Shown: piece after piece, positions 1 through 16,548 of the stretch | Layout: each line of letters begins with the position of its first letter | How positions within the stretch are numbered: the stretch's first letter is position 1 | Position numbers and translations under genes: made by a program | Sequence record: LR881103 | DNA length: 16,548 nt | Strand: one strand, 5' to 3' | Source of the DNA: Escherichia phage vB_KppS-Ant | The notes under the pieces: generated by a model | What the model was told of the DNA's origin: nothing | Seen by the model: the letters and a program-made list of their open reading frames with translations, nothing else | Database searches by the model: none

Positions 1-22
1 ACGAAAAGGAAAACAGTAAGTT

Positions 23-379
23 ATGGCAAGACCACCCAAACCGCCCGCTTACCTTGATGAAATCGCGGCGCAGCAGTGGAAAGCAAAGGCGAAGCAACTG
101 GCGGAACGCGGTGATCTGACGCCTGCCGACTGGAACAACCTTGAGCTTTATTGCGTCAACTACTCGATGTACCGCAAAGCCGTGAAGGACCTTGCCGCGC
201 GGGGATTCAGCATTGTGAACAGCCAGGGTGGTGAGAGTCGCAACCCGGCCCTGAGCGCAAAGGCTGATGCCGAAAAAATTCTCATAAAAATGTCGTCTCT
301 GCTGGGCTTTGATCCGGTAAGCCGTCGCCGCAACCCGCCTGAAACTGAAGAGGAAGACGAACTTGACCGCATGGAATGA
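23..379 (+). CDS. terS: Phage terminase small subunit (P27-like family)
   Basis: 118 aa; N-terminal PPKPPAYLD...W, central LTPAD...LE.YC and C-terminal NPAL...GFDPVSRRR pattern typical of P27-type small terminases; sits directly upstream of and overlapping the large terminase. Confidence 0.75.
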   Translation: MARPPKPPAYLDEIAAQQWKAKAKQLAERGDLTPADWNNLELYCVNYSMYRKAVKDLAARGFSIVNSQGGESRNPALSAKADAEKILIKMSSLLGFDPVSRRRNPPETEEEDELDRME

Positions 380-2024: not shown

Positions 2025-2035
2025 GGAGAAAGATT

Positions 2036-4333
2036 ATGGCAGGTAAATCATTAGGCACTCTCACCATTGACCTGATCGCCAGAACCGGCGGTTTTGTCCA
2101 GGGTATGGATAAAGCCGAACGTTCATCACAAAAATGGCGGGATAACGTTAAAAAAGATGCCGCAGCCGTGGGTTCAGCCCTTGCTGCTGTTGGCACAGCC
2201 GCAGCAGCGGCGGCTATCGGTGTTAGTGCCGCTGGTATTGCACTGGTAAAAAATACCTCAGAGCAGATCACTGAAACTGATCGCTGGGCTAAATCGCTAA
2301 AAATGTCTACTCAGGATTTGCTTTCATGGCAGTTTGCTGCTGAGAAAGCAGGGTTGACCGGGGATAATATTGCTGACATCTTCAAGGATATTAACGATAA
2401 AGTCGGCGATGCTGTCCTGAACAAGTCAGGTGAGGCTGCTCAGGCTCTGGATACTCTCGGGCTTTCAGCTGAGAAACTGGCCCAGCAATCCCCTGATAAG
2501 CAGTTACTGGCTATCAGCTCGGCATTGCAAAAAATCCCCTCTCAGGCCGGGAAAACTAATATCCTCGAAAGCCTGGGGAATGACCTGTCAAAAATGCTGC
2601 CGTTGTTCGACAACAATAACGAGAAGCTGAAGCAGTTTATCCAGCTGTCAAAAGATTTTGGTGTCGCTCCGCCCCAGGAGGATATTGATAACCTGGTTAA
2701 GGTTAATCAGTTTTTCCAGGATATTGAGAGCAGTGCACAGGGGTTAAAGATCGAGATTGCCAGTGGCCTGGCTAAAGTAGACCTCTCACCGATTCAGGAT
2801 GGACTTGATGATATCCGGGATGTGTTTACCGATCCTGCTGTTCTGTCAGGTCTGGCAAAGCTGGTCGGAGGGATGGCGGAACTTGTTGGCTGGATGGGTA
2901 AGCTAAGTTCTGAATCTGCTAATTTTCTCAGCCATATATTTGAAGTGCCTGACAGGTTTAAGGCGGGTGGCTGGTACGAGTTTGAAAAAAATCAGAGATT
3001 AGGAGCAATAGCAGATACGCTTCAATCAGATTTAGGGGGAATAACTAAACCATCTTCAAACTCTGAGTTGCCAATAAATAATAACCTGCTCCCCGGGCAG
3101 AGCAATCAGAAACAAACTCAAAAGCCTGATGCTGAGGCAAAAAAACTTGAAAGTGCCTATAAAGCCGTAGAACAGTCATATTTAAAGCAAATTGCGCTGG
3201 TGGATCAGCTAACCGGGAAAACCAAAGACGCCACTGAAGTAGAAAAACTACATTTCGATTTAGTATCTGGTCGTCTGGTTGGGATAAATAAAGAACAGCA
3301 AATCAGGCTTGAGGGCTTGGCCTCAGAAGTTGATAAATATAACGCGTTGTCAAAATTTCGAGATTTGCAGGATGAGTTATTAACTCCAGAAGAAAAATTA
3401 CTTAAAACGACGAGAGAACGTTTTGAAATATTAAAAGATATTCAGGGAATGAAGGGGATCAGCCCTGATGAATATAAAAAAGCAGCAGAAGCCATATCGA
3501 AAGATTCATTTACAGATATGCCTAAATTTAGTGGTCTTGATCCGATGTTTGGCGGTCAATCTGGAGAGTTAAGAAAAGTTGATGACGCACAGAAAGAACA
3601 GGAAAAATGGTATCAGAATCAGCTCGATTTGCTGGAACAGAACCGTCAGGCACGTTCTGACCTTAATGATGAGTGGGATGCCAGAGAGCTTGAACTGAAG
3701 AAAAAACACCAGGATGAAATGAATAAGCTCGATGAAGCCCGTAATCAGCTGATGTTGAGCAGTGTTGTCGATGGGCTTGGTTCTATGGTGGATTTGACCC
3801 GTACAGCTTTTGGTGAGCAATCAGGAGTATACAAAGCCGCGTTTGCAGTTCAGAAAGCCGCGGCTATTGCTCAGTCTGTTATCGCTATCCAGCAGGGGAT
3901 CGCGATGGCGGCTGCAAACCCTTTCCCGTACAACCTTGCAGCGATGGCCAGCGTAGCCGCTTCTACAGCCGGTATTGTGTCGAACATTGCGGCCGTGGGT
4001 ATGGCTCACGATGGTATTGATGCTGTTCCAGAAACCGGAACATGGCTTCTCCAGAAGGGCGAACGCGTAGTCACGGCGAATACCAGCGCGAAACTGGATG
4101 CGACCCTTAACCGTGTCGCCCAGCAATCCACTTCTGGTAATCAGATTTCCCAGGAATTTAATTTTAACGTTAATGGCGATCCTTCTGATGCTCAGATAGC
4201 CATGATGAAGAAAGCGGCCGCTGACGGTGCCAAGATGGGGTATCAAAAGGCGGTCAATTCAGTAATTACTGGTCAGGGTGATTTGCACAAGGCTCTGATG
4301 ACGAAAACTAATTCAGGCAGAAAAATAGGGTGA
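2036..4333 (+). CDS. Tail tape-measure-like protein (lambda gpH family architecture)
   Basis: 765 aa; N-terminal GTLTIDLIARTGGFVQGM segment followed by an Ala-rich hydrophobic stretch; long central charged Lys/Glu/Gln-rich helical region; C-terminal hydrophobic Ala/Gly-rich block then GIDAVPETGTWLLQKGERVVTANTS, which resembles the conserved C-terminal motif of lambda-family tape-measure proteins; strong RBS (AAGGAG) upstream. Confidence 0.65.
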   Translation: MAGKSLGTLTIDLIARTGGFVQGMDKAERSSQKWRDNVKKDAAAVGSALAAVGTAAAAAAIGVSAAGIALVKNTSEQITETDRWAKSLKMSTQDLLSWQFAAEKAGLTGDNIADIFKDINDKVGDAVLNKSGEAAQALDTLGLSAEKLAQQSPDKQLLAISSALQKIPSQAGKTNILESLGNDLSKMLPLFDNNNEKLKQFIQLSKDFGVAPPQEDIDNLVKVNQFFQDIESSAQGLKIEIASGLAKVDLSPIQDGLDDIRDVFTDPAVLSGLAKLVGGMAELVGWMGKLSSESANFLSHIFEVPDRFKAGGWYEFEKNQRLGAIADTLQSDLGGITKPSSNSELPINNNLLPGQSNQKQTQKPDAEAKKLESAYKAVEQSYLKQIALVDQLTGKTKDATEVEKLHFDLVSGRLVGINKEQQIRLEGLASEVDKYNALSKFRDLQDELLTPEEKLLKTTRERFEILKDIQGMKGISPDEYKKAAEAISKDSFTDMPKFSGLDPMFGGQSGELRKVDDAQKEQEKWYQNQLDLLEQNRQARSDLNDEWDARELELKKKHQDEMNKLDEARNQLMLSSVVDGLGSMVDLTRTAFGEQSGVYKAAFAVQKAAAIAQSVIAIQQGIAMAAANPFPYNLAAMASVAASTAGIVSNIAAVGMAHDGIDAVPETGTWLLQKGERVVTANTSAKLDATLNRVAQQSTSGNQISQEFNFNVNGDPSDAQIAMMKKAAADGAKMGYQKAVNSVITGQGDLHKALMTKTNSGRKIG

Positions 4334-4548
4334 TGAAGATGACAGAACTTGAAAGTTTATTTTACGAGATGATGCCGGGTCATATTGCCCACGCGATGAA
4401 AATTGAAGGGGCAAAAATTCTGGCAGAAAGTACGCAGAAAGAGGCCGAACGTCAGTCAACGTTAACCGGCCTGTCTTCTGAGCTTATCATTCAAACTGCG
4501 ATTCAGGCGATCTCTATGCAGATGAAAAACTGGCAAGTAGTCCACTGA
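4330..4548 (+). CDS. Hypothetical small protein (72 aa), start overlaps the tape-measure stop
   Basis: ORF with GTG/ATG starts overlapping the upstream TGA; no recognisable motif. Confidence 0.4.
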   Translation: MMKMTELESLFYEMMPGHIAHAMKIEGAKILAESTQKEAERQSTLTGLSSELIIQTAIQAISMQMKNWQVVH

Positions 4549-4597
4549 CAAGGTTATGGCCCTCAATCGGGGGCCACACTACCAACTGAGGTGCTGC

Positions 4598-4786
4598 ATG
4601 TTAAAAAGAGAAGCTTTAGAGTCTGCCATTATCAGTGCAGCAAAATTGCAGGGGCATGATCTTAACGGGCGAGATCGTCTTATGGTGCGTAATCGCGTTG
4701 CCACTTGCTTGGCTGCGAAAGAACGCCACCGGCAAAGGATGGATGCCGAACCGTATCAATGGAGAAAGCCGGAAAGGCCAAGGTGA
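4598..4786 (+). CDS. Hypothetical small basic protein (about 62 aa; internal ATG of ORF 4556..4786)
   Basis: GAGG 6 nt upstream of ATG at 4598 (the ATG at 4556 has only a 2-nt spacer after AAGG); followed by an intrinsic terminator. Confidence 0.3.
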   Translation: MLKREALESAIISAAKLQGHDLNGRDRLMVRNRVATCLAAKERHRQRMDAEPYQWRKPERPR

Positions 4787-4871: not shown

Positions 4872-4875
4872 CTAA

Positions 4876-4915
4876 TAAAAAAGGCGCTTCCCCATGCCGA
4901 AGAGCGCCTTTTTAA
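4876..4915. terminator. Bidirectional intrinsic terminator-like hairpin flanked by A-run and T-run
   Basis: aaaaaAGGCGCT...AGCGCCTTttt: 8-bp stem (4881..4888 with 4903..4910) with A-tract upstream and T-tract downstream. Confidence 0.5.
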
Positions 4916-5082
4916 ACAAGCATTTAACTGATTGGTATCAGTTCATGCCGTACTGTCATATTAGCTGTTTTCATGCTTTTAGATGATTTTAATATTCATA
5001 TAATAATCAATGTGTTGTATAAATTCATGCCTGTATATTGTTCCAGTGTTTTTCTTTGTTTATGCTATTATGCAAGCAATTC

Positions 5083-5104
5083 TGTATAAACATTTGTATA
5101 AACA
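5083..5104. repeat. Tandem pair of TGTATAAACA decamers (right copy), just upstream of the integrase start
   Basis: tgtataaaca-tt-tgtataaaca at 5083..5104; candidate integrase arm-type sites. Confidence 0.7.
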
Positions 5105-5122
5105 CTTTGGGCTGGGTGGTCT

Positions 5123-6343
5123 ATGGCTGGCGAACTTAACAAACTGAGCGACAGGAAGTTAAAGGGATTACATGGTATCCCGGCCAGTAAGATTGAGTTC
5201 TATGCTGATGGTGCCGGGCTGAGCGCCAAGGTAACTAAAGCTGGTGGTATTAGCTGGGTGTTTACTTACCGACTCGACGGGCAGAAGCTGCATCGTCTTA
5301 CTCTGGGACGATACCCGGATATGAGCCTCAAAGAGGCCCGTTCTTCGCGTGATAAATGCCGCCAATGGCTGGCCTCAGGTAAAGATCCAAAGCACCAGTT
5401 GGCGCTGACCACTCAGGAAACGCTTAAACCGGTCACTGTTAAGGAAGCTATAGAATACTGGATACGCGAATATGCAGAAGAGAACCGCGCGAATGTTGAA
5501 CGGCACAAAGCGGAGCTGCGAAAACACATTTATCCTTATATAGGGAAAATGGCGCTCGCTGACTGTGAAACACGATACTGGCTTGACTGCTTTGACAGGA
5601 TGAAAAAGAAAACTCCAGTCGCCGCAGGTTATGTGTTCCAGATGTGCAAACAAGCCCTGAAATTCTGCCGGGTTCGTCGCTATGCTGTGAGTACCGCGCT
5701 TGAAGATTTAACAATTCCAGATGTCGGTAAAAAACAGGCAAAAAAAGACCGGGTATTAAACGATAAAGAGGCTGGCGATTTATGGGCTGCCATTTCCTCT
5801 GGCACTTGCTTCATGCCTTACTACACCAGGCTACTGACAATCTTAATGGTGTTTGGGTGCCGAACGCAGGAGGCCAGGCTATCAGAGTGGAGTGAATGGG
5901 ATATGGATGCCTGGGTCTGGACAGTTCCCAAAGAGCACAGCAAGGGCGGCGAGAAGATTGTAAGACCTGTGCCGGATGCCATGCGCAAATTCATTGAAAT
6001 ACTGCATGATGAAACGAAACGATCCGGCCTTTTGCTTGGGTCGGTTAAAGGCAGTGAAGCGGTAAGTCAGTGGGGCCGCGGTGTTTATAAAAAGCTGGGG
6101 CATTCTGAACCATGGACACTGCACGATCTAAGACGAACTTTAGCAACGCATATGAATAATATGGGTATAGCACCACACGTTGTCGAACAGTTGTTGGGGC
6201 ACTCAATGCCGGGAGTTATGGCGATTTATAACCGTAGTCTGTACTTGCCTGAGAAACTGGATGCGTTGAATAAATGGTATGACAGACTTGATATTTTATC
6301 AGGTGGATTCACTAACATTGTTTTGTTGAATAGGGCTGAATAA
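5123..6343 (+). CDS. int: Tyrosine site-specific integrase, P4-type (N-terminal arm-binding domain plus C-terminal catalytic domain)
   Basis: 406 aa; N-terminal L.D.K...GL.....G..W.F.YR..G.....LG.YP..SL.EAR...D pattern of P4-like integrases; C-terminal HDLRRT ... LLGH ... Y catalytic signature. Confidence 0.9.
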   Translation: MAGELNKLSDRKLKGLHGIPASKIEFYADGAGLSAKVTKAGGISWVFTYRLDGQKLHRLTLGRYPDMSLKEARSSRDKCRQWLASGKDPKHQLALTTQETLKPVTVKEAIEYWIREYAEENRANVERHKAELRKHIYPYIGKMALADCETRYWLDCFDRMKKKTPVAAGYVFQMCKQALKFCRVRRYAVSTALEDLTIPDVGKKQAKKDRVLNDKEAGDLWAAISSGTCFMPYYTRLLTILMVFGCRTQEARLSEWSEWDMDAWVWTVPKEHSKGGEKIVRPVPDAMRKFIEILHDETKRSGLLLGSVKGSEAVSQWGRGVYKKLGHSEPWTLHDLRRTLATHMNNMGIAPHVVEQLLGHSMPGVMAIYNRSLYLPEKLDALNKWYDRLDILSGGFTNIVLLNRAE

Positions 6344-6993
6344 TGACTAGTTTTCTAAAATTGGGTATTTTCGAGCGAGAAGCCAAAGCCCCGGAACTCA
6401 ATATTAAACAACTTGCACTACTTATGTGTGGGGTAGATCCGACAGTTAAAACTGCTGATATCCCTGAGGCGAAAGTTGAAGCTTACAATATATACTATCG
6501 ACAACTGAGTAGATGGTTATCAGCATCTAAATTATTTCGAGGTGGAAACTCAACAGCCTATCCCGCAGACTATATGTTTGCTCTGGCATATCCTCTTATT
6601 GATGAAGATATTACACCACAACCCATAAAGGACAGATGCCTTGCAGCGGTGGCTATAATTGCTAATCAAAACAAAGGAAAAGAGCATCTTTATGCTATGG
6701 GAGGGGATGAGCTTTTACAGGTCGGAATTGCATTGAAAAGCAGCAAACGCGGCTTGCATCGTAAAGAAGATGAAAAGGAATATAATGATAAATTAATGGG
6801 GATGCTGGTCAAGCTTATAGCACATAAGATAGGCCATTCGTTTGGCACCTCTAAAAAACCAAGCATCTCGGCTATTTTAAACGAACTATATAAATTAGCT
6901 GATGAGGAAGGTATATCTAAAACTGGATTATCCAAATCAGCAATATATGATAAAATTCGCAAGGCATTAAATTCGATTTATTATACGGAATGA
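6343..6993 (+). CDS. Hypothetical protein (216 aa), AT-rich cargo gene translationally coupled to int
   Basis: Start overlaps the int stop (TAATG); codon composition visibly more AT-rich than the neighbouring core genes; no recognisable catalytic motif. Confidence 0.55.
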   Translation: MTSFLKLGIFEREAKAPELNIKQLALLMCGVDPTVKTADIPEAKVEAYNIYYRQLSRWLSASKLFRGGNSTAYPADYMFALAYPLIDEDITPQPIKDRCLAAVAIIANQNKGKEHLYAMGGDELLQVGIALKSSKRGLHRKEDEKEYNDKLMGMLVKLIAHKIGHSFGTSKKPSISAILNELYKLADEEGISKTGLSKSAIYDKIRKALNSIYYTE

Positions 6994-7129
6994 ATATTAT
7001 TTTGCAGTGTTAGTGGGTGTTATTTATATTTCATGTGAAAATACTAATTAATTATATTTGTTGGAGCTTTTGGCGATTCTATGATCGCCAAGGAGATTCA
7101 ATTGTTATATTTGATGTTTATTACAGTTA

Positions 7130-7229
7130 CATTCAACAGCATTCAACAGCATTCAACAGCATTCAACGACACGTAACGACACGTAATGACACGTAACGGC
7201 ACCCGACAGCACCTAACAATACCTAGCTC
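7130..7229. repeat. Array of ten contiguous 10-bp units (CATTCAACAG x3, then progressively diverged copies)
   Basis: cattcaacag at 7130, 7140, 7150; cattcaacga, cacgtaacga, cacgtaatga, cacgtaacgg, cacccgacag, cacctaacaa, tacctagctc follow with strict 10-bp period. Confidence 0.8.
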
Positions 7230-7270
7230 CATCCACGGTCTCTACTAGGTCATTACTTGCTAACTTTTTC

Positions 7271-7337
7271 CATCTTTGTTCATGGTTATTCATCACTGTT
7301 CATCAGCGTTCATCATTGTTCATCTTTGTTATGAACA
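7271..7337. repeat. Second 10-bp-periodic array: TGTTCATC-type units (about 5 direct copies plus 1 inverted copy)
   Basis: catctttgtt catggttatt catcactgtt catcagcgtt catcattgtt catctttgtt then atgaaca; the unit is one mismatch from the TGTTCACC octamer clustered at 11720..11950. Confidence 0.75.
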
Positions 7338-7379
7338 ATCCAAGGCGAATCAAATCGTTAAAGAACGGTGATCTTCGGC

Positions 7380-7583
7380 GAGTTATTGAAATTCATGATT
7401 TTTTCTCTCGCGACAGCCGTTGAAATTACTGTGGAAATTGTTTTCAACAGGGGAGCGTTATCTTGATGGAATTTCTATCTTTCAATGGAATTGCGTGTTC
7501 TTTTAAAGGATTCCAGAATCAATGGAAATGCTGGTCGTTTATCCACTAATCTCTTCGCATAACATTGAAACAGTGGAGGCAGC
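7380..7583 (+). promoter_or_regulatory. alpA upstream regulatory region with dispersed TGGAA(A/T)T and TTGAAATT repeats
   Basis: gtggaaattg (7431), tggaattt (7467), caatggaattg (7483), caatggaaatg (7520); ttgaaatt at about 7386 and 7421; promoter not confidently placed. Confidence 0.3.
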
Positions 7584-7868
7584 ATGCAAAATATAACCTT
7601 TACCCCGCCAAATCCTGAACAACGCCGCACCCTTTTAGAAGAGTACGGCTTTAAGTTTGATCGCCGAATCCGTGAAGATGAATGCAGCGAGATCACCAGT
7701 CTTTCCCGTTCCAGCCGCTGGAAGATGGAACAGCAGGGGCGCTTCCCTCCGCGCTGTCACTTTGGCCGCAATAGCTGTGCTTGGCTTCTTTCGGATGTGC
7801 TCTGGTGGGTTCGTAATCCGCCAGCAGTAGAGAACGTCAATAACCCATACAGCCGTAAATCTGCTTAA
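7584..7868 (+). CDS. alpA: AlpA-family phage transcriptional regulator (excisionase-like HTH)
   Basis: 94 aa; ...SEITSLSRSSRWKMEQQGRFPPRCHFGRNSCAWLLSDVLWWVRN matches the AlpA-family HTH pattern; GGAGG RBS; position downstream of int as in P4-like and PICI elements. Confidence 0.7.
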   Translation: MQNITFTPPNPEQRRTLLEEYGFKFDRRIREDECSEITSLSRSSRWKMEQQGRFPPRCHFGRNSCAWLLSDVLWWVRNPPAVENVNNPYSRKSA

Positions 7869-7888
7869 TTAACCACAGGTAATCTGAG

Positions 7889-8581
7889 ATGAAAAAGATT
7901 AATGCCCTCCACGGGCAGGGATTCGCTCACCCTGTAGCCAGCCAGCACGATATTTCAGCGAACCGTAAACAGGTTATTGCCGGTGACTGGTCGCCCATTA
8001 ATCGCGGTGAATTTACGCTTGCCGATCTGGGGTTGCGCCACAACGGTAACGGGCTGGTGTGGCTGCGTTCCGGCGTGTCCGTGCATGAGGCAGACCATGA
8101 TGCAGGGATAAGCGGCAAGGACAAGACCAAAGGAAGGGTTAACGGCCTTCCTTTTGAATTTGTCGGCCAGTGGCAGGAATACCCGACTAAACGCAGCTTT
8201 GCCGTTTCAGTATCTACGGAACTACGGCGCCAGTATTACCCGGACGATGCCGCATTCAGTAAGGCAATGCGTGAGGCTGGTTATGTTCCGGTGCGCACTC
8301 GCAAACTGACCGGAAAGGATGCTCGTTTTTGGCTGTACCGTGTAACGGGCAATGATAAGGGGGTTGTCGCAGCAGAATCCGCGCCACACAAGGCTTGCGC
8401 GCCAGTTGTCCAGACCATATCTAAGCCTCATCCGTGGTTTAAGCGTGTGGCACTCGATGGTAAATGGCAGTACGTCTACGCAGATCACATCCGCTTTCTG
8501 ACTAAAAAGCGTCATCGCGTCGATGGTGTTCGGGTTCAGGGGTATACCGCTGGCGGGCTGAAAGTGGAGGCTATTGTATGA
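7889..8581 (+). CDS. Hypothetical protein (230 aa) between alpA and the replication module
   Basis: Protein-like composition; stop overlaps next potential start (ATGA); function not recognisable from sequence. Confidence 0.55.
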   Translation: MKKINALHGQGFAHPVASQHDISANRKQVIAGDWSPINRGEFTLADLGLRHNGNGLVWLRSGVSVHEADHDAGISGKDKTKGRVNGLPFEFVGQWQEYPTKRSFAVSVSTELRRQYYPDDAAFSKAMREAGYVPVRTRKLTGKDARFWLYRVTGNDKGVVAAESAPHKACAPVVQTISKPHPWFKRVALDGKWQYVYADHIRFLTKKRHRVDGVRVQGYTAGGLKVEAIV

Positions 8582-8593
8582 CAGGCAAAACAA

Positions 8594-8615
8594 AGGCGGC
8601 CATGCCGGGCCGCCT
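8594..8615. other. GC-rich hairpin (8-bp stem, 6-nt loop) right after the 7889..8581 stop; terminator-like for minus-strand readthrough
   Basis: AGGCGGCC-atgccg-GGCCGCCT; the U-tract lies on the minus-strand side (complement of aaaacaaa at 8586..8593). Confidence 0.35.
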
Positions 8616-8923
8616 GAGTCTCAACGCTTTACTGAAACATCGCCAGATTACCAGGCTTGCCGCTGGTGGTCAAACCTTGAGCCAACGAAATCCGTACGCA
8701 CAAATTAACCGCGTACGTTTAACGTACGGACATCGCAATCCATTGAAGGAACTTGATTATAACGAATCGTTAGAATCGGCTGGCAACAAACACGAACAGT
8801 ATTCGGGTTCGCCTGAACATCAACACTGCTTAGGTTCAGAGGTTCCGACGAATAACGTAGAGAGCTGCGAAGATAACCAACCCTCTTTAAGAGGTGAGCC
8901 TCTGCACAACGCATTAAGAGTTG

Positions 8924-8950
8924 CGCAAAACAACCCCTCTTTAAGAGGGG
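8924..8950 (-). terminator. Rho-independent terminator for the minus-strand RHH gene
   Basis: Minus-strand reading: CCCCTCTT-a-AAGAGGGG followed by ttgtttt, about 35 nt downstream of the 8982 stop; a second similar palindrome CCTCTTTAAGAGG lies at 8881..8894. Confidence 0.55.
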
Positions 8951-8981
8951 CAGTTCACAGCATTACGGAGAGTAACCCTGT

Positions 8982-9185
8982 TCAGCTTTCAGGTTCCGAT
9001 CTGGCTTTCTTGCGCTGCTCAGATTTGAGTTTGCGCCCGCAGGCATCCAGAACCCACGCAGAGAAATTAGCACCGGCGTTATCTGCTTTCTCTCGCTCTA
9101 CGCTGGCGTCAATCTCTTCAATAAGTTCGTGCGGAAATCGTATCTTTTTCTGCGCTGATTTAGCGTTTACTGCCTTAGTAGCCAT
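8982..9185 (-). CDS. Small ribbon-helix-helix-like DNA-binding protein (67 aa), candidate repressor
   Basis: KIRFPHELIEEIDASV...NFSAWVLDACGRKL fits a beta-strand / helix / helix RHH (Arc/CopG-like) layout; strong RBS AGGAGG 4 nt before ATG; own terminator; divergent from the replication operon promoter. Confidence 0.55.
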   Translation of the reverse strand: MATKAVNAKSAQKKIRFPHELIEEIDASVEREKADNAGANFSAWVLDACGRKLKSEQRKKARSEPES

Positions 9186-9198
9186 TTACCCTCCTGCG

Positions 9199-9271
9199 TA
9201 TAGTGAGGGTACACCATATCAGAAAAATAGCTTGACGTGTACCCCCACCGAAAATATAGTGGGGGTGCACC
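9199..9271 (+). promoter_or_regulatory. Near-consensus sigma70 promoter (TTGACG-17-TATAGT) overlapped by three operator-like 12-mers GTG(A/G)GGGT(A/G)CAC
   Basis: -35 TTGACG 9232..9237, 17-nt spacer, -10 TATAGT 9255..9260; 12-mers at 9203..9214 (+), 9237..9248 (inverted) and 9259..9270 (+); 17-bp direct repeat tatagtgagggtacacc / tatagtgggggtgcacc. Confidence 0.55.
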
Positions 9272-9363
9272 TTGAGGTTGAAGATACTCAAGATACAGCG
9301 AAGCCCGGCAGTGTTACCAGCACTAACCGGGCCTCTGACCACAACGTAACTGAGGCTTACATC

Positions 9364-9552
9364 ATGGCTTGTATACAGCATACCCAAACTCGCCCCAAAT
9401 ATCAGTATCGTTTTCTTGCGCTGAGCGCCATCGGGCGCAACGTCATTCACATCACCGCTACCACTGAGCGCGAAGCCCGTGAGCAATCACCGGATGGATG
9501 CGTGATGGTATTCGCTGGTCGTCTGCCAGTTCGGGAGGGGCACCATGCGTGA
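9364..9552 (+). CDS. Possible small leader protein (about 62 aa), 3' portion of the long ORF 8578..9552
   Basis: ATG at 9364 with GAGG 8 nt upstream, downstream of the 9232..9260 promoter; sequence MACIQHTQTRPKYQYRFLALSAIGRNVIHITATTEREAREQ... looks more protein-like than the upstream part of the frame. Confidence 0.3.
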   Translation: MACIQHTQTRPKYQYRFLALSAIGRNVIHITATTEREAREQSPDGCVMVFAGRLPVREGHHA

Positions 9553-9739
9553 GCCAATCAGCTTAGACCAGGCAGAATACAAATCAGCGCTGGCCGCTTC
9601 ACTCTTCGAAACCATCCTGGAAAAAGCCTCTGCTGAATGTTCAGAAACGCTGCTGAATCTGATTTCTATTGCGTGTGATTTTAATCAGGAAATTCACCGG
9701 GCATTAATCGCTGAGCTGGGTATGGGAGAAACGAAATGA
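9545..9739 (+). CDS. Hypothetical small acidic protein (64 aa)
   Basis: Translationally coupled (overlapping start/stop) within the replication operon; net acidic. Confidence 0.45.
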   Translation: MREPISLDQAEYKSALAASLFETILEKASAECSETLLNLISIACDFNQEIHRALIAELGMGETK

Positions 9740-9954
9740 GACAGGTTCCTTTTGAAGTCCTGATGCACGCTGAAAATGCCCTTTCTGAAAGCGAAGGAGC
9801 CTATGAGGTTCTCAGCATGTGGCTAGACAGTATTCCTGAAAGCGAGGAGTTCCACGGTGAAGCGTGCAAGGTAAGCGCAATCATGTCGCTGCTGCATAAA
9901 TCTATCGGCGAGCTGGTGAAAGCGCGGGAGGCTTACAGTGAAAAACGCGCCTAA
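9736..9954 (+). CDS. Hypothetical small acidic protein (72 aa)
   Basis: ATGA overlap with the upstream ORF; Glu-rich; overlaps the helicase start. Confidence 0.45.
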   Translation: MRQVPFEVLMHAENALSESEGAYEVLSMWLDSIPESEEFHGEACKVSAIMSLLHKSIGELVKAREAYSEKRA

Positions 9955-11689
9955 TGTGAAAACCCTCCCGCGCGACAAAATGGAGGAGGCCATCATCTTT
10001 GCTGGAACGGGAGCATGGAAAGCCGCTCAGGATTACCAGAAAGGGAAGGGCGAGCATGGAGACGATGTTCCGCCTGTGGTTCTGGATCACACCCAACTGG
10101 CGGAATTACCACACCTGCGCATTGTTGATAAAGGCCGTCGATTTGCCCGTGTCTGTCAGGCCGGGCTTATCGAGCAAAACCAAATCAGCATGATTGCAAA
10201 TAAGTTGTGTGAGGCTGGCGTTACCAATGCTGAGTTTATCAACGAACAAGGCGAGAAAGAGGACTGGACGCCATTGATGAAACGTCTGGAAGACGAGCCC
10301 CTTATGGTGACTACGAGGGGAAGTGCTACGCCAGCGCTTAACCAGATGGGAGCCAGCCAGCGCGGGGAAGTTCTGCTTGCTCATTACAATGGCAATCTGG
10401 CGATCCATGCTGATTCCGACACGGTTCATCATTACAACGGCGTGGTGTGGGTTCCGCTTTCGGATAAAGAGCTGCAGCGAGAAATGGCGCAGATTTTTAT
10501 TGATTCCGAAGTCGCCTATTCGCAGAACGCGATTAAATCCGCTGTCGATACAATGAAGCTGGGCCTCCCGGTAATGGGTAACACAGCCCGTAACCTGATT
10601 GGTTTCAGCAACGGGGTTTTTGATACCCGGTTAGGCCAATTTCGACCGCATGATAAAAAGGACTGGCTTATCGTTGCGAGCGAATTGCCATTCAGCGAAC
10701 CAGCAGAAGGTGAAACTCTGGCAACCCATGCGCCTAACTTCTGGAAATGGCTCCGCCGCTCTGTGGCGGATAATGACCGAAAAGCAGACCGCGTACTGTC
10801 TGCGCTGTTTATGGTGCTGGCGAACCGGTACGACTGGCAGCTGTTTCTTGAGGTAACGGGGCCGGGCGGAAGTGGTAAAAGTGTCATGGCTGAGATCTGC
10901 ACGATGCTGGCGGGCAAGGCCAATACGGTATCGGCGAGCATGGCGGCGCTGGAGAACCCAAGGGAAAGGGCGCTGGTAGTTGGCTATTCGCTGATTATCA
11001 TGCCGGATATGACCCGGTACGCTGGCGACGGCGCAGGGATTAAAGCTATCACTGGCGGGGATAAGGTGGCTATCGACCCAAAACACAAAGCGCCATATTC
11101 AACCCGTATCCCGGCGGTGGTGCTGGCCGTCAATAACAATGCTATGACGTTCAGTGACCGCAGCGGCGGTATTTCAAGGCGACGGGTGATTTTCAACTTC
11201 ACCGAAGTAGTGCCGGAAAACGAACGCGATCCGATGCTGGCCGAGAAGATTGAAGGAGAGCTTGCGGTAATCATCCGGCATCTGCTTGTGCGCTTTTCCA
11301 GCCAGAACGAAGCCAAACAGCTTTTGCATGAGCAGCAGAAATCAGAAGAAGCGCTGGCCATCAAACGTGAAGGGGATTCACTGGTGGACTTTTGCGGATA
11401 CCTGATGGCTTCGGTGGTTTGTGATGGAATGCTGATTGGTAATGCCGAGATCGTGCCATTCAGCCCGCGCCGTTATCTGTATCACGCTTATCTGGCTTAC
11501 ATGCGGGCCAATGGTCTTAGCAAGCCTGTATCGTTAATGCGGTTCGGTACGGATATGCCAGGCGCAATGGCTGAATATGGCAAGGAGTACCAGAAGCGCA
11601 AAACTAAAAATGGCATAAGATCGAACGTCACCCTGCATGATGATTCAGAAGACTGGATGCCAATGTGTACCGATACAACAAAAGAATAA
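9938..11689 (+). CDS. Replication protein: P4-alpha / D5-family SF3 helicase (phage/plasmid primase C-terminal type), probable origin-binding initiator
   Basis: 583 aa; Walker A GPGGSGKS about 300 aa in; D5_N-like region upstream (HYNGVVWVP); GTG start with GGGAGG RBS; iteron cluster immediately downstream. Confidence 0.8.
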   Translation: MKNAPNVKTLPRDKMEEAIIFAGTGAWKAAQDYQKGKGEHGDDVPPVVLDHTQLAELPHLRIVDKGRRFARVCQAGLIEQNQISMIANKLCEAGVTNAEFINEQGEKEDWTPLMKRLEDEPLMVTTRGSATPALNQMGASQRGEVLLAHYNGNLAIHADSDTVHHYNGVVWVPLSDKELQREMAQIFIDSEVAYSQNAIKSAVDTMKLGLPVMGNTARNLIGFSNGVFDTRLGQFRPHDKKDWLIVASELPFSEPAEGETLATHAPNFWKWLRRSVADNDRKADRVLSALFMVLANRYDWQLFLEVTGPGGSGKSVMAEICTMLAGKANTVSASMAALENPRERALVVGYSLIIMPDMTRYAGDGAGIKAITGGDKVAIDPKHKAPYSTRIPAVVLAVNNNAMTFSDRSGGISRRRVIFNFTEVVPENERDPMLAEKIEGELAVIIRHLLVRFSSQNEAKQLLHEQQKSEEALAIKREGDSLVDFCGYLMASVVCDGMLIGNAEIVPFSPRRYLYHAYLAYMRANGLSKPVSLMRFGTDMPGAMAEYGKEYQKRKTKNGIRSNVTLHDDSEDWMPMCTDTTKE

Positions 11690-11719
11690 AGGCGGGGAAA
11701 ATTAAAAGTAATGGGATAA

Positions 11720-11950
11720 GTGTTCACCACTGTTCACCATGTATAAAAATCATTAAATAACAATATGTTAATGGGTGAACACTTTTTTATGAAGTGTTCA
11801 CCAAGTATTCACCTGTTCACCCTGTTTTATCTTTTCCTCAGTTTGAGGTGAAGGGTTGGGTGAACACTAGTGAACACCTGAAAGAATAGTATTCACCCTG
11901 TAACTATATGAATTTAATTAATAAATTATCAAAGGTGAACAGGTGAACAC
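11720..11950. promoter_or_regulatory. Origin-like iteron cluster: at least 10 copies of TGTTCACC / GGTGAACA (and the TATTCACC variant) in both orientations in AT-rich DNA
   Basis: Copies at about 11721, 11731, 11774 (inv), 11794, 11805 (variant), 11814, 11859 (inv), 11869 (inv), 11889 (variant), 11934 (inv), 11942 (inv). Confidence 0.65.
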
Positions 11951-12095
11951 TTAAACGTATATTTTTTAATTTTATTGAGCAACGCAGGATCACTTCCAGC
12001 CTGGAATACCTGGGATCAATCATGGAACACGCACCGTGGAATATTAAAAGCTAATATTTTTGTAAATTATTTGTATTCATGTTTACTCATTCTTA

Positions 12096-12123
12096 CCCCC
12101 GTCTTTTGCGGGGGTTTTCTTTA
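12096..12123 (+). terminator. Rho-independent terminator between the replication and head modules
   Basis: CCCCCG-tcttttg-CGGGGG (6-bp GC stem) followed by ttttcttt. Confidence 0.6.
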
Positions 12124-12289
12124 TATTTTTCATGTATATCTTGAAGAGTGGCACTCAGACGTGAGCCGCCACTGGCCGTTAAGTCAAGCTGTAGCGAGTA
12201 CAGCCTGCGAGAGGCAGAAAAAGATTTAACGGCCTCCCCTCCAAGCGCTGGTTTCACGTCTCTACATTAATTGATACGGAAACCACTCC

Positions 12290-13450
12290 ATGAAGAAACT
12301 ACTCGAATTACGCCAGCAGAAAGCCGCACTCAAAACACAGATGCGTTCCATGCTGGACAAAGCCGACACCGAAAAGCGCAGCCTGAACGAAGAAGAGGGC
12401 AAAAAGTTCGACGAACTCCGCGCACAGGCTGATGCGCTTGAAGTTGAAATCAACCGCCTTGAAGCCGTCGCCGAAGATCAGCGCAATCTGCCTGGTACTT
12501 CCGTTGAAGGTGATCCAGTAAGCAACGACGAGCTGCGCCACTACATCATGACCGGTGATACCCGTTCTCTCTCCACGCTGGTGCAGGCTGACGGCGGTTA
12601 TACCGTTATCCCTGAGCTGGACAAAGAGATTATGCGCCAGTTGCAGGATGATAGCGTGATGCGCTCCATCGCAACGGTGAAGACCACCAAAACCAACGAA
12701 TACCAGAAGCTGGTATCTGTGGGCGGCACTACCGTTAATCGTGGTACCGAAGGTGAGGCACGTACCGAAACCAGTACGCCGAAGATGGAGCGCGTTGATA
12801 TCAAACTCAACCCGATCTACGCCTACCCGAAAACCACTCAGGAGATTCTCGACTTCTCCGAGGTGGATATTTTGGGCTGGCTGTCTTCTGAAATTGCCGA
12901 CACCTTCACCGCGACCGAAGAAAGCGACTTTGTGAACGGCGACGGTGATAAAAAATCCAAAGGCTTCCTGTCTTACCCTCGCGCGGCCACTGCCGACAAA
13001 ACCCGTCCGTTCGGTACGCTGGAGAAGATGGAAGCGGCTGACGTTTCCTCTGATGGCCTGATCGACCTGCTGTATAAGCTGAAAGCCAAATACCGCAAAA
13101 ACGCCGTATGGGTGATGAACTCCAACACCGCAGCCAAACTGCAAAAGCTGAAAAACGGCAACGGGGATTACATCTGGCGCGATCGTCTGGTTGCCGGTTC
13201 TCCCGATACCCTGCTGGGCCGTCCGGTTCAGTACCTTGAAACCATGCCTGATGCTGATGCCGGAGAAGCGTTCCTCGCGGTTGGCGACTTCAAGCGCGGT
13301 TACTTCATCGTGGATCACACTACTGGTGTGCGTACCCGCCCTGACAACATCACCGAGCCGGGCTTCTATAAGGTTCACACCGATAAATATCTGGGCGGCG
13401 GCGTGGTGGACTCCAACGCGATCAAGATTCTGGAGCTTGCTGGTTCCTGA
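12290..13450 (+). CDS. Major capsid protein, HK97 fold/family
   Basis: 386 aa; N-terminal coiled-coil delta-domain-like region (KKLLELRQQKAALKTQ...), then ADGGYTVIPELDKEI and the overall HK97-family pattern. Confidence 0.85.
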   Translation: MKKLLELRQQKAALKTQMRSMLDKADTEKRSLNEEEGKKFDELRAQADALEVEINRLEAVAEDQRNLPGTSVEGDPVSNDELRHYIMTGDTRSLSTLVQADGGYTVIPELDKEIMRQLQDDSVMRSIATVKTTKTNEYQKLVSVGGTTVNRGTEGEARTETSTPKMERVDIKLNPIYAYPKTTQEILDFSEVDILGWLSSEIADTFTATEESDFVNGDGDKKSKGFLSYPRAATADKTRPFGTLEKMEAADVSSDGLIDLLYKLKAKYRKNAVWVMNSNTAAKLQKLKNGNGDYIWRDRLVAGSPDTLLGRPVQYLETMPDADAGEAFLAVGDFKRGYFIVDHTTGVRTRPDNITEPGFYKVHTDKYLGGGVVDSNAIKILELAGS

Positions 13451-13460
13451 TTCGACGTGT

Positions 13461-13477
13461 GAGGGGCTTCGGCCCCT
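13461..13477 (+). other. Stable hairpin with UUCG tetraloop between capsid and protease genes (possible attenuator or mRNA stabiliser)
   Basis: AGGGGC-ttcg-GCCCCT; only a short U-run follows. Confidence 0.35.
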
Positions 13478-13501
13478 TTCTGCCCTCTGTGGAGTCCAAT
13501 A

Positions 13502-14062
13502 ATGAAAACAATAGATTTTGAAATCCGCACCTCTGAACTGACCGCTACTGATAAGAAGCTGGTGGGCTATGCCGTGCGCTGGAACAGTCTGTCAGAAATC
13601 ATCTGGGATGAATTCAGGGAACAGTTCGCGCCGGGAGCGTTTAAAGACAGCCTGGCATCCGGTAGCGATGTGCGGGCGTTGTATGAGCATAACTATACCC
13701 AACTGCTGGGACGTACCAAATCTGGCACGCTGGTGCTGTCAGAAGATGATACCGGGCTGCGCTTTGAGCTGACGCCGCCGAATACTCAGCTTGGTAATGA
13801 TGTGCTGGCGCTGGTGGAACGTGGCGATCTTTCAGGTATGAGCTTTGGTTTCCGTGCGCTGAAAGAGTCCTGGGATATTGCGCAATCCCCGTACCTGCGA
13901 ACAGTGACCGCTGCCGAACTACGGGAAATCACCGTTACTTCCATGCCTGCTTACCCTGAATCCGGCGTGGAAATCGCGCACCGTTCGCTTTTCTCCCAAC
14001 ATCCTGAACTGCGCCGCGCTGGCGATAACCGTCGCCGCTGGGCTGAATTAGCGGGGCTCTGA
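13502..14062 (+). CDS. Prohead maturation protease, HK97 family
   Basis: 186 aa; GYAVRWN..., YEHNYTQLLGRT (His), LSEDDTGLRF, GMSFGF (Ser) pattern. Confidence 0.8.
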   Translation: MKTIDFEIRTSELTATDKKLVGYAVRWNSLSEIIWDEFREQFAPGAFKDSLASGSDVRALYEHNYTQLLGRTKSGTLVLSEDDTGLRFELTPPNTQLGNDVLALVERGDLSGMSFGFRALKESWDIAQSPYLRTVTAAELREITVTSMPAYPESGVEIAHRSLFSQHPELRRAGDNRRRWAELAGL

Positions 14063-14063
14063 T

Positions 14064-15299
14064 ATGTGGAATATCTGGCCGTTTGGCCGTAAGTCTGAAC
14101 CCTCTGAGCAGCGCAGCATGACCATTGATGAATTTCTGGCGATGGCAGGGATTCCAAATACCGGATCAGGCGAGTATGTGTCTGCGGGTACTGCGGAATC
14201 TCTGCCGGCGGTAATGAACGCCGTATCAGTTATCAGTGAGGCGGTGGCAACAATGCCCTGCTACCTCTACCGCGTGCGCAACGATAACGGGCGTGAGGCG
14301 CGGGAATGGCTGAGCAATCACCCGGTGGATTTTCTGCTGAATGAGCAGCCGAATATTTGCCAGACGCCTTACCAGTTCAAGCGCACGATGATGCGCCACT
14401 GTCTGCTGAACGGTAACGCCTATGCGGTGATCCAGTGGGGCCGCGACGGCCAGCCACAATCCCTGCATCCGTATGCGCCGGGGGCGGTTGTTCCTGAGCG
14501 TATCGGCGAGCATAAGTACAAATACACCATCACTGAGCCGTTTACCGGGGCTGTACGTACCTATTTGCAGGAAGAGATTCTGCACCTGCGTTATTCCACC
14601 GATGACGGTTTTCTGGGGCGCTCGCCGATCACCATTTGCCGGGAGGCGCTGGGGTTAGGTCTGGCCCAACAGCGCCACGGTGCCAGCATTATGAAAGATG
14701 GCATGATGGCGGCGGGCGTCATTACGGCTAAAGAATGGCTGGATAGCGTTAAAGGGAAAAGTGCACTTGAGGCGCTGGAGCGCTACAAAGGTGCAAGGAA
14801 TGCCGGGAAAACGCCGATCCTTGAAGGGGGGATGGACTACAAACAGCTTGGCATGAGCAATCAGGATGCCGAGTGGCTGGCCTCCCGCCGTTTCACCATT
14901 GAAGATATTGCCCGCATGTTCAACGTGTCGCCCATCTTCCTGCAGGAATACAGCAACAGCACCTACAGCAACTTCAGCGAGGCAAGCCGCGCTTTTCTCA
15001 CCATGACTATGCGCCCGTGGCTGGCGAACTTCGAGCAGCAGATTAAATCCGCGCTGCTGGTGGCTTCTCCTGTGCCGGGTATTCGTTATCAGGTGGAATT
15101 TGATTCCGCTGACCTTCTCCGCGCTACTCCTACCGAACGCTACGCAACCTATGAGCGCGGCATCAAGAACGGGATCATGAATCCTAACGAGGCTCGCGAG
15201 CGTGAGGGCATGGCACCGCGTGAAGGCGGTGACGAGTTCAGCCAGGCATGGAAGCAGGAAGTCACTGTGAGCAAGGGCAATAAGGATGGTGACGAATGA
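14064..15299 (+). CDS. Portal protein, HK97 family
   Basis: 411 aa; AVMNAVSVISEAVATMP and ARMFNVSPIFL segments typical of HK97-type portals. Confidence 0.8.
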   Translation: MWNIWPFGRKSEPSEQRSMTIDEFLAMAGIPNTGSGEYVSAGTAESLPAVMNAVSVISEAVATMPCYLYRVRNDNGREAREWLSNHPVDFLLNEQPNICQTPYQFKRTMMRHCLLNGNAYAVIQWGRDGQPQSLHPYAPGAVVPERIGEHKYKYTITEPFTGAVRTYLQEEILHLRYSTDDGFLGRSPITICREALGLGLAQQRHGASIMKDGMMAAGVITAKEWLDSVKGKSALEALERYKGARNAGKTPILEGGMDYKQLGMSNQDAEWLASRRFTIEDIARMFNVSPIFLQEYSNSTYSNFSEASRAFLTMTMRPWLANFEQQIKSALLVASPVPGIRYQVEFDSADLLRATPTERYATYERGIKNGIMNPNEAREREGMAPREGGDEFSQAWKQEVTVSKGNKDGDE

Positions 15300-15637
15300 A
15301 AGCCGGAAAGATGAAACGCCGCGTCACTATTCAGCAGTTCGTCAGTCACCAGGACCCGAACACGGGGTCAGTCACTAAAGAATGGCGCGATGTTGCCACC
15401 GTTTGGGGGGAGATAGACAGCGTAAGCGGGCGGGAGCTTGTAGCCGCCCAGGCTGAACAGTCAGAGATGACAGTCAGAATCTGGATTCGCTATCGCAAAG
15501 GCGTTACCACCAAAAACAGACTGACCTGCACAGAAAAAGGAATGCCTGTAACCATCTACGACATCAAAGCTGTTCTGCCTGATGCAGATCGTACCCGCCT
15601 TGAAATTATGTGCACCGGAGGGCTGACCAGTGGCTGA
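15296..15637 (+). CDS. Head-tail adaptor / head closure protein (SPP1 gp16-like head-tail joining family)
   Basis: 113 aa; RRVTIQ...D..G....W..V..VWGEI....GRE........MTVRIWIRYR pattern; ATGA overlap with the portal stop. Confidence 0.65.
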   Translation: MKAGKMKRRVTIQQFVSHQDPNTGSVTKEWRDVATVWGEIDSVSGRELVAAQAEQSEMTVRIWIRYRKGVTTKNRLTCTEKGMPVTIYDIKAVLPDADRTRLEIMCTGGLTSG

Positions 15638-15923
15638 AACTATTGAACTTGCTGAAGCAAAACTTCACTGCCGTATTGATGGCGATGATGAAGATTTGCT
15701 CATTCAGGCTTACATCGATGCGGCTCTGGAGGTTTGCCAGAAACATATCGGCAAGCGGTTTGATAGTGGGCTGGAGCTTACCCCGGCTATCAAAATCGGT
15801 TGCCTGATGTACGTCTCTCAGTTGTACGAGTACCGCACGATGATTAGCGATGTGGAGGCGAAAGAGGTTCCTCTTGCTGTCTCAGCGCTGTGGTCTGTCT
15901 ATCGTGACGTGGGGGTGTACTGA
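15630..15923 (+). CDS. gp6-like head-tail connector protein
   Basis: 97 aa; LAEAKLHCRIDGDDEDLLIQAYIDAA...; GTG start overlapping the upstream gene. Confidence 0.65.
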   Translation: MAETIELAEAKLHCRIDGDDEDLLIQAYIDAALEVCQKHIGKRFDSGLELTPAIKIGCLMYVSQLYEYRTMISDVEAKEVPLAVSALWSVYRDVGVY

Positions 15924-16366
15924 TGCCGTGGCAACCCTTACGCCGTTGCACTGAGCCGGGATGCAACAAGCGCGTGAAGTCTGGTAAATGCGATGAGCAT
16001 AAACGGGAGGTGTGGCGGGCACAGGATGCCAGACGCGGCCACCGTCGCGCCCGTGGTTACTCAGCAGCATGGGAGAAGTATCGCGCCCAGTATCTAAAAC
16101 GCTATCCCCTGTGCGCTGAGTGCCAGAAGCAGGGCCTCTTCGTTCCTGCAAAGATTGTCGATCACATCATCCCTATCGACGGCGGTGATGATGTTCTGTT
16201 CTGGCCTGAGTGGAATCACCAGCCGTTATGCCAGACGCATCATAACCAGAAGACCACACAGCAAGACCCTATCACCAAAGCCAATCGCAAAGCGGGGATG
16301 TACCACGAGCAGGAAGAGCGGGCAGCACAGCGCAATAACTGGATGTATGAGGTTGATCATGAATGA
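15923..16366 (+). CDS. HNH endonuclease (terminase-associated type)
   Basis: 147 aa; Cys pairs CTEPGC and CAECQ plus DHIIPIDGGDD...NHQPLCQTHHNQK HNH signature. Confidence 0.85.
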   Translation: MPWQPLRRCTEPGCNKRVKSGKCDEHKREVWRAQDARRGHRRARGYSAAWEKYRAQYLKRYPLCAECQKQGLFVPAKIVDHIIPIDGGDDVLFWPEWNHQPLCQTHHNQKTTQQDPITKANRKAGMYHEQEERAAQRNNWMYEVDHE

Positions 16367-16511
16367 GAAAGACGTGGTGAATCTGTATCAGTCGCTGGCC
16401 CGATGCCGTGATGGCTTCATGCAGACCCGCACCAGACGCGATGAGCGCCAGCCTGTGCAGCGCATGAGTGAGCGTGACCGGGAGTTGCGGGAATGCTTCC
16501 GCAACCGCTGA
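16359..16511 (+). CDS. Hypothetical small Arg-rich protein (about 50 aa), internal start of ORF 16155..16511
   Basis: ATG at 16359 overlaps the HNH stop; GAGG 6 nt upstream. Confidence 0.35.
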   Translation: MNEKDVVNLYQSLARCRDGFMQTRTRRDERQPVQRMSERDRELRECFRNR

Positions 16512-16548
16512 CAGGCCGCACCGATGGGGTGGGGGAGGTTTTCAGGAC

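Follow-up and report, generated by a model that had tools for sequence, protein, structure and literature searches.

A conserved, linked pair of small acidic genes in the predicted early operon of a capsid-forming phage satellite

Background

In the left (alpha) operon of satellite P4, ORF88/Vis is followed by an Icd-like "cI ORF", epsilon, orf151, cnr (orf106) and alpha; among the genes in the slot between the cI ORF and alpha, epsilon functions in derepression of the helper and cnr in copy number. An Icd-like gene is also part of a growth-arrest locus of Escherichia coli ECOR61, in which the phage accessory gene orf24 triggers arrest by way of a prophage-like cluster; six linked genes, including a primase gene, were needed to rebuild the phenotype, Tn5 suppressor insertions fell in the Icd-like gene (366 nt) and in two adjacent orfs (186 and 192 nt), and Silas et al. 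called the locus Icd-like "superinfection exclusion" (bioRxiv 10.1101/2023.04.06.535777).

Capsid-forming PICIs (cf-PICIs) move from genus to genus with very high frequency, and most of their early operon is without annotation. The window analysed here, a stretch of 16,548 nt from Escherichia phage vB_KppS-Ant (sequence record LR881103), contains two small overlapping orfs, here called orfA and orfB, directly upstream of a replicase gene. An earlier note had described them as acidic, as translationally coupled to each other and to the helicase, and as candidates for helper interference or anti-defence, possibly as DNA mimics or as inhibitors of host or helper proteins, if not simply as replication accessories.

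The element and its early operon

The element encodes an integrase, AlpA, a 230-aa orf, a divergently transcribed DUF3950 protein, an Icd-like protein, orfA, orfB and a D5/P4-alpha-type helicase, then an HK97-type capsid protein, a protease, a portal, a head-closure protein, a connector, an HNH protein, TerS and TerL. By the published criteria for cf-PICIs (preprint 10.1101/2025.02.11.637232), which were tested with Pfam on the window and on the Klebsiella chromosomal island L085 of GCA_000742135.1, the window classes as a capsid-forming PICI. It is a rotated form of that island with 99.9% identity: positions 4873-16548 of the window correspond to 5139-16813 of L085 and positions 1-3337 to 16883-20219 (99.9-100% identity). 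The window starts about 20 nt before TerS, and about 70 nt of the island (L085 16814-16882) are missing at the junction of its end with its start, possibly because the source was cos-cut or circularised. The L085 island adjoins an AcrEF-like efflux/TetR locus. We take GCA_000742135.1 to be K. pneumoniae ATCC 13883 (DSM 30104), in which case the island would be KpCIDSM30104. The KpCIDSM30104 island has been studied previously (preprint 10.1101/2025.02.11.637232).

Right after TerL, a 765-aa orf (2036-4333) with no match in Pfam, NCBIfam or PADLOC sits in the post-packaging cargo slot, which is expected to hold immune systems (preprint 10.1101/2025.02.11.637232); it is followed by two small orfs (4330-4548 and 4556-4786), and in L086 a tape-measure-like gene takes its place. 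The 230-aa basic orf after alpA (7889-8581) has no family match; its slot in sister elements holds antirepressor-type genes (AntA/AntB, KilAC or Bro-N), and the gene at this position is listed as a variable region (preprint 10.1101/2025.02.11.637232).

The divergent YlcI/YnfO gene (8982-9185, minus strand; DUF3950 in Pfam, NF041551 in NCBIfam) keeps its position upstream of the Icd-like orf in relatives and is a possible regulator of the operon. On the plus strand, a consensus scan found a sigma-70-like promoter candidate (TTGACG-17-TATAGT, 9232-9260, 10/12 matches) that is likely to be the start of the Icd-orfA-orfB-pri transcription unit. The Icd-like orf (9364-9552, plus strand; 62 aa, pI 9.4) matches NF033153 (E 8e-17) and phrog_1743 and has Icd-like homologues in RefSeq; its stop overlaps the start of orfA by 8 nt (ATGCGTGA). 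The pair had been thought to lead the helicase operon, but the Icd-like orf and the promoter-like site precede it, and in the predicted order (Icd-like, orfA, orfB, pri) orfA and orfB are the second and third genes.

Gene callers extend the Icd-like orf to a gene of 324 codons (8578-9552) that runs antisense to the DUF3950 gene, and long in-frame N-terminal extensions (205-336 codons) recur in divergent relatives. At the 5′ end of the Icd-like region of locus L049, a stretch of about 90-100 nt (4102-4204) recurs, with 74-83% conservation, in 133 E. coli records; 32 of the matching places are on plasmids, those listed being 60-100 kb in size and unannotated at the match. This stretch is possibly a c4/CI-like immunity RNA; Rfam found nothing in the equivalent region of the window, nor in the whole window at the gathering threshold, nor in 8400-10100 at E values up to 5.

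The slot after the Icd-like gene is variable. Sister elements have unrelated small orfs there, mostly acidic (pI 4.4-5.4), and other relatives have orfB alone, orfA alone or a tandem A-A, as would be expected of accessory genes. Unrelated orfs follow the Icd-like gene in L093 and L105-L107, and orfB alone follows it in L092. L092 and L094-L103 of E. coli are helper-embedded PICIs that interrupt the capsid gene of a prophage and have the order Icd-like gene, orfB-family protein (74 aa), DUF4222, primase. Their Icd-like protein of 121 aa looks from its sequence like a tandem domain duplication, and the index of the collection lists exactly this protein in 628 blocks.

Two small acidic genes with overlapping ends

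orfA (9545-9739, plus strand) and orfB (9736-9954, plus strand) both start with ATG and encode 64 and 72 aa, respectively. As computed from the translations, the orfA product has 11 acidic (D+E) and 5 basic (K+R) residues with a pI of 4.47, and the orfB product has 13 and 7 with a pI of 4.91; the net charge is -6 for each. Four nucleotides, ATGA, are common to the stop of orfA and the start of orfB, and orfB, with its TAA stop at 9952-9954, extends 17 nt into the primase-helicase orf, whose GTG start at 9938 is equivalent to the start used by RefSeq in the E. coli homologue. Motifs resembling SD sites precede all three genes (GGGAGG before orfA and pri, GGGAGA before orfB). Overlaps of this type give translational coupling, so that synthesis of the two proteins is probably coupled. 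In these respects the earlier description of two small, acidic, overlapping orfs before the helicase was accurate, as were its coordinates and the net acidity that it gave for both proteins.

The acidity is modest: D+E make up 17-18% of the residues of both proteins, as compared with 16% in the capsid protein and 18% in the connector of the same element. Both families nevertheless keep a net negative charge, the median being -6 in each. Family alignments contain invariant residues; C32, C44, D45 and N47 are conserved in orfA, and an N-terminal PFEVLxHAENAL motif and W29 in orfB. Because chance alone readily produces orfs of such length (113 of 40 aa or more in the 16.5-kb window), the status of orfA and orfB as genes rests on comparison with relatives.

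The pri SD motif, the pri start and the orfB stop are enclosed by a 10-bp GC-rich hairpin at 9922-9973 (GCGCGGGAGG / CCUCCCGCGC). It was considered as a coupling device and rejected: relatives have uncompensated mismatches in it, the left arm is missing at DUF4222-pri junctions, and the folding energy of the segment is not unusual (z = -0.65). The hairpin is probably incidental. Folds at the Icd-like/orfA and orfA/orfB junctions are unremarkable.

Conservation and distribution

Homologues of orfA and orfB, which form 64 and 80 clusters at 90% identity, respectively, come from Klebsiella, Enterobacter, Salmonella, E. coli, Citrobacter, Serratia and their relatives, and every one is annotated as hypothetical. 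A profile search of 1.84 billion representatives with orfA returned only 40 clusters at 50% identity, and those looked up by name belong to Enterobacterales (Proteus, Dickeya, Budvicia, Pragia); the orfB profile returned 152 clusters. By tblastn, both genes are absent from 50,697 phage genomes. The two families appear, from these searches, to be confined to satellites of Enterobacterales.

The median pairwise dN/dS is 0.14 for orfA (dN 0.07) and 0.31 for orfB (dN 0.33), the latter occurring as discrete allelic types of about 99, 83, 60, 57 and 41% identity. Since these ratios are low and homologues occur across Enterobacterales, orfA and orfB are real genes under purifying selection. A lack of conservation in related elements, which the earlier note had named as a finding that would refute its interpretation, was not what was found.

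The comparative set consisted of 47 distinct IMG/VR loci with orfA or orfB, mostly on cf-PICI-like contigs of 14-18 kb. The two genes are adjacent in 35 of these loci and overlap by 4 nt in all but one, a variant with a read-through orfA; the same overlap is present in two E. coli loci and in the window. The two genes are not obligate partners, since each is found without the other: orfA in L036, L037 and ten loci with a distant orfA, and orfB in L069 and in E. coli PICIs embedded in a helper, such as L092. Tandem A-A fusions occur in L043, L046 and L048. Two proteins, P0156 and P0160, each from a single contig, are in-frame A-B fusions whose B domains were recognised by hhalign with probabilities of 99.8% and 96.9%, respectively; the B domain of P0160 has no start codon of its own. 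orfA and orfB were rejected as paralogues of each other (hhalign probability 0.3%), and the 64-aa acidic orf that follows the distant orfA homologues has no detectable homology to orfB.

Predicted structures and database searches

Structure prediction with a Foldseek search, which the earlier note had proposed as a check, gave a confident AlphaFold2 model of the orfB product as a two-helix hairpin (helices 6-32 and 37-71, pLDDT 92) that matched only generic helical hairpins in PDB and BFVD, with best E values of 0.3-0.6. The orfA product may form a similar hairpin (helices 7-31 and 34-57), at the low confidence (pLDDT about 60-66) that it received within a linker-fused model. That model, A-(G4S)6-B built from a paired alignment, has a pLDDT of 62 and a pTM of 0.41, and no confident A:B interface.

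Neither protein matches Pfam, NCBIfam or PADLOC, and neither has a DNA-binding or enzymatic signature in Pfam or NCBIfam. Both have full-length matches in PHROG (orfA to phrog_35285, E 1e-37; orfB to phrog_2196, E 3e-18), two families labelled "unknown function", so that membership gives a name only. A sequence search of the PDB returned nothing below E 0.005, and the matches it did return were spurious. Clear homology to a replication accessory, another finding that the earlier note had named as refuting, was found in none of the domain, structure and profile searches.

The replicase, the probable origin and their relationship to the pair

The pri gene (9938-11689, plus strand) encodes a primase-family SF3 helicase recognised by Pfam, PHROG and NCBIfam (D5_N, DUF5906, Pox_D5), the C-terminal 449 aa of which are 51% identical to P4 alpha by BLASTP; the Zn-ribbon and Toprim primase module known from relatives is missing. 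On the 3′ side of pri, an origin candidate (11698-11972) contains eight exact TGTTCACC octamers in both orientations, where 0.4 would be expected; all are within 11721-11949, and the region is a probable replication origin. The octamer is presumably the same as that of the type-1 repeats bound by P4 alpha.

The replicase encoded downstream of the pair differs among the IMG/VR loci. At the N-terminus it carries a 130-aa domain in some loci and a Zn-ribbon with a Toprim primase in others; the C-terminal helicase is of the D5 or of the DUF927 type, and each N-terminal module is found with each helicase behind one and the same orfA-orfB pair. orfB allelic types do not track the type of replicase, and in some loci DUF4222 or other small genes intervene between orfB and pri. 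On this evidence, the pair is independent of replicase type. In L034, a standalone gene for a 68-aa CHC2 (DnaG-type) zinc ribbon (5802-6008) is located between the Icd-like orf and orfA, and the replicase is without a zinc-ribbon and Toprim module of its own.

Possible functions of the pair

The explanation that we tentatively prefer is that orfA and orfB encode linked acidic hairpins that act as protein-binding accessory modulators of the host, of the helper or of Icd-linked growth arrest. The proteins would be made in step by way of the overlapping stop and start codons, as part of an early unit of the P4 left-operon type. They would work together in trans and by protein binding, not by DNA binding or catalysis; the target might be a host or helper-phage protein or an Icd-linked growth-arrest function, and the replicase of the element would not include the pair as a dedicated subunit. 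That A and B are linked is argued from their adjacency, the conserved 4-nt overlap and the natural A-B fusions. An experimental analogue is the ECOR61 locus, in which phage-triggered growth arrest depends genetically on a slot of this kind. A review names int, alpA and pri as the sole genes essential to induction and transfer of Gram-negative PICIs (PMC10111431), which fits an accessory role for orfA and orfB and defines none. The suggestion of interference with helper or host, as first made for this pair, is consistent with a slot that corresponds to that of P4 epsilon, orf151 and cnr and that is occupied in relatives by shuffled small acidic orfs; the part of that suggestion that invoked DNA mimicry is unsupported.

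It is somewhat unlikely that the pair are replication accessories or copy-number regulators in the manner of P4 Cnr, which would bind the primase-helicase or the host replisome and load or tune initiation at the TGTTCACC origin. The genes are directly upstream of the replicase gene, with overlapping stop and start codons, and P4 cnr has the same place before alpha; some related operons include an SSB gene, and in L034 the DnaG-type zinc ribbon just upstream of orfA puts the pair inside a set of replication genes. A dedicated replicase subunit is nevertheless made less probable by the persistence of the pair while the replicase swaps its N-terminal and helicase domains, to the extent that the same pair accompanies replicases that share neither module, and the idea that the proteins are simply replication accessories is weakened by these swaps. 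In addition, orfB alleles do not co-vary with the replicase, DUF4222 can come between orfB and pri, neither protein resembles Cnr/DUF5375, and many sister elements with the same replicases do without both genes. If the pair do act in replication, their target may be a conserved protein of the host replisome.

A role as partners of the Icd-like protein is unlikely. The pair would neutralise, time or relay growth arrest, being antitoxin-like or a sensor in an abortive-infection or superinfection-exclusion module. The Icd-like orf, which is basic and overlaps orfA by 8 nt, is always upstream of the pair in the same operon, and in ECOR61 the suppressing Tn5 insertions lie in the Icd-like gene and in both of the small orfs that follow. 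Many sister elements, however, have an Icd-like gene without orfA or orfB, so the two genes are not obligate antidotes, and the obligate co-occurrence of antitoxin with toxin that would be expected of a toxin-antitoxin pair is not seen. The orfs of ECOR61 also differ in length (61 and 63 aa), and the nearest 61-aa family of E. coli reaches an hhalign probability of just 28%. The Icd-like orf of the window may itself be toxic, or it may act chiefly at the RNA level, in immunity, as in P4.

It is quite unlikely that the pair are DNA mimics or other anti-defence proteins, blocking restriction, RecBCD or another defence early in infection as do Ocr, ArdA or T7 gp5.9. Consistent with such a role, the genes are small, acidic and part of an early operon, in a slot whose content differs from relative to relative; orfB evolves faster than orfA and in discrete allelic types, and the element moves between genera, where evasion of defence would pay (preprint 10.1101/2025.02.11.637232). 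Against it, neither family was found in the 50,697 phage genomes, and orfA, with a dN of 0.07, is highly conserved, unlike typical arms-race genes. Known DNA mimics have about 25-30% D/E and a pI near 4 or lower. The pair have an ordinary charge density, with the same medians across their families (17-18% D+E, pI 4.5-4.9) and much like the capsid protein and connector; orfB is predicted to be a plain hairpin, Ocr, ArdA, Gam and the other families of Pfam are not matched, PADLOC is likewise silent, and nothing in PDB or BFVD falls below E 0.3. The ordinary charge and the lack of any match weaken the proposal of DNA mimicry.

It is improbable that the sensor or relay of an Icd-based growth-arrest switch of the satellite consists of orfA and orfB, which occur as a fusion in some lineages. 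In such a switch the pair would bind an early or counter-defence protein of a phage, leading to activation of the satellite or to abortive infection; if true, this would explain why small acidic hairpins are shuffled through the slot across P4-like, PICI and cf-PICI satellites.

Hardly credible is a role as cis-acting leader orfs, in which the act of translation brings ribosomes to pri, whose GTG start is poorly initiated, and the peptides themselves are of little importance: the serial overlaps (8, 4 and 17 nt), the GTG start and a hairpin at 9922-9973 that could mask the SD motif and start codon of pri would suit it, but strong purifying selection on the amino acids, with invariant residues, excludes mere leader peptides, the pair is kept where DUF4222 or other genes separate orfB from the replicase, and the hairpin is mismatched without compensation in relatives and of ordinary folding energy.

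If the preferred reading is right and the targets are in the helper, in the host or in Icd-linked arrest, the pair would explain the timing of satellite replication or the response to phage; if they are replication helpers only, the finding is routine. Two "hypothetical proteins" have become a defined, conserved and linked module for deletion and interaction studies. Such studies look feasible because the window is so nearly identical (99.9%) to the Klebsiella island, which, if its strain is the one we presume, appears to be an experimentally tractable cf-PICI.

Comparison with known systems

T7 Ocr, ArdA and T7 gp5.9 are, like the products of orfA and orfB, small and acidic proteins of mobile elements that are expressed early, but the charge density of orfA and orfB is far lower than that of these proteins, falling short of the carboxylate density characteristic of Ocr/ArdA-type mimics; similarity to them in sequence or fold was not found, the model of orfB being a simple two-helix hairpin.

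The ECOR61 locus is closer in layout. In the window, as in ECOR61, an Icd-like gene with an 8-nt overlap, two coupled small orfs of about 60 aa and a linked primase gene form one cluster. The sizes differ, with an Icd-like protein of 121 aa and orfs of 61 and 63 aa in ECOR61 as against 62, 64 and 72 aa in the window, and Tn5 insertions in the ECOR61 orfs can be polar on the primase gene downstream. Related layouts in complete E. coli genomes carry other small orfs; a 61-aa orf of L114 and L115 was compared with the orfA profile and not accepted as a homologue (hhalign 28%). The likeness between the window and the ECOR61 locus is one of architecture.

The closest likeness is to the left operon of P4. 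An AlpA-type regulator is upstream in both, P4 ORF88 being AlpA-like and 31% identical to AlpA of the window. The C-terminus of the P4 cI ORF matches NF033153 (E 8e-21), as does the Icd-like orf of the window; BLASTP between the latter and the cI-ORF C-terminus found nothing, so that this link is the shared NF033153 match. P4 epsilon (7888-8175) overlaps the cI ORF (8168-8584) by 8 nt, and orfA likewise overlaps the Icd-like orf, directly after which it is placed. The annotation of P4 includes 8-bp "ori type 1 repeats", and the window has TGTTCACC octamer iterons after the helicase gene. By position, orfA and orfB can be assigned to the epsilon/orf151/cnr slot. The proteins themselves are different: by Pfam and by profile, orfA and orfB have no detectable resemblance to epsilon (PF25738, which P4 epsilon itself matches at E 9e-51), to orf151 or to Cnr (DUF5375), and the pair lacks the association with one type of replicase that would be expected of a Cnr-like partner. 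P4 epsilon is basic (pI 9.3) and P4 Cnr neutral, whereas orfA and orfB are acidic. P4 orf151 was judged by eye to be DUF4222-like, a resemblance dropped when Pfam gave no match. The elements differ as well, this one being a capsid-forming PICI with head and packaging genes of its own and P4 a Sid/Psu/Delta satellite. orfA and orfB can be counted, as uncharacterised members, among the small accessory proteins of satellite early operons, a known class.
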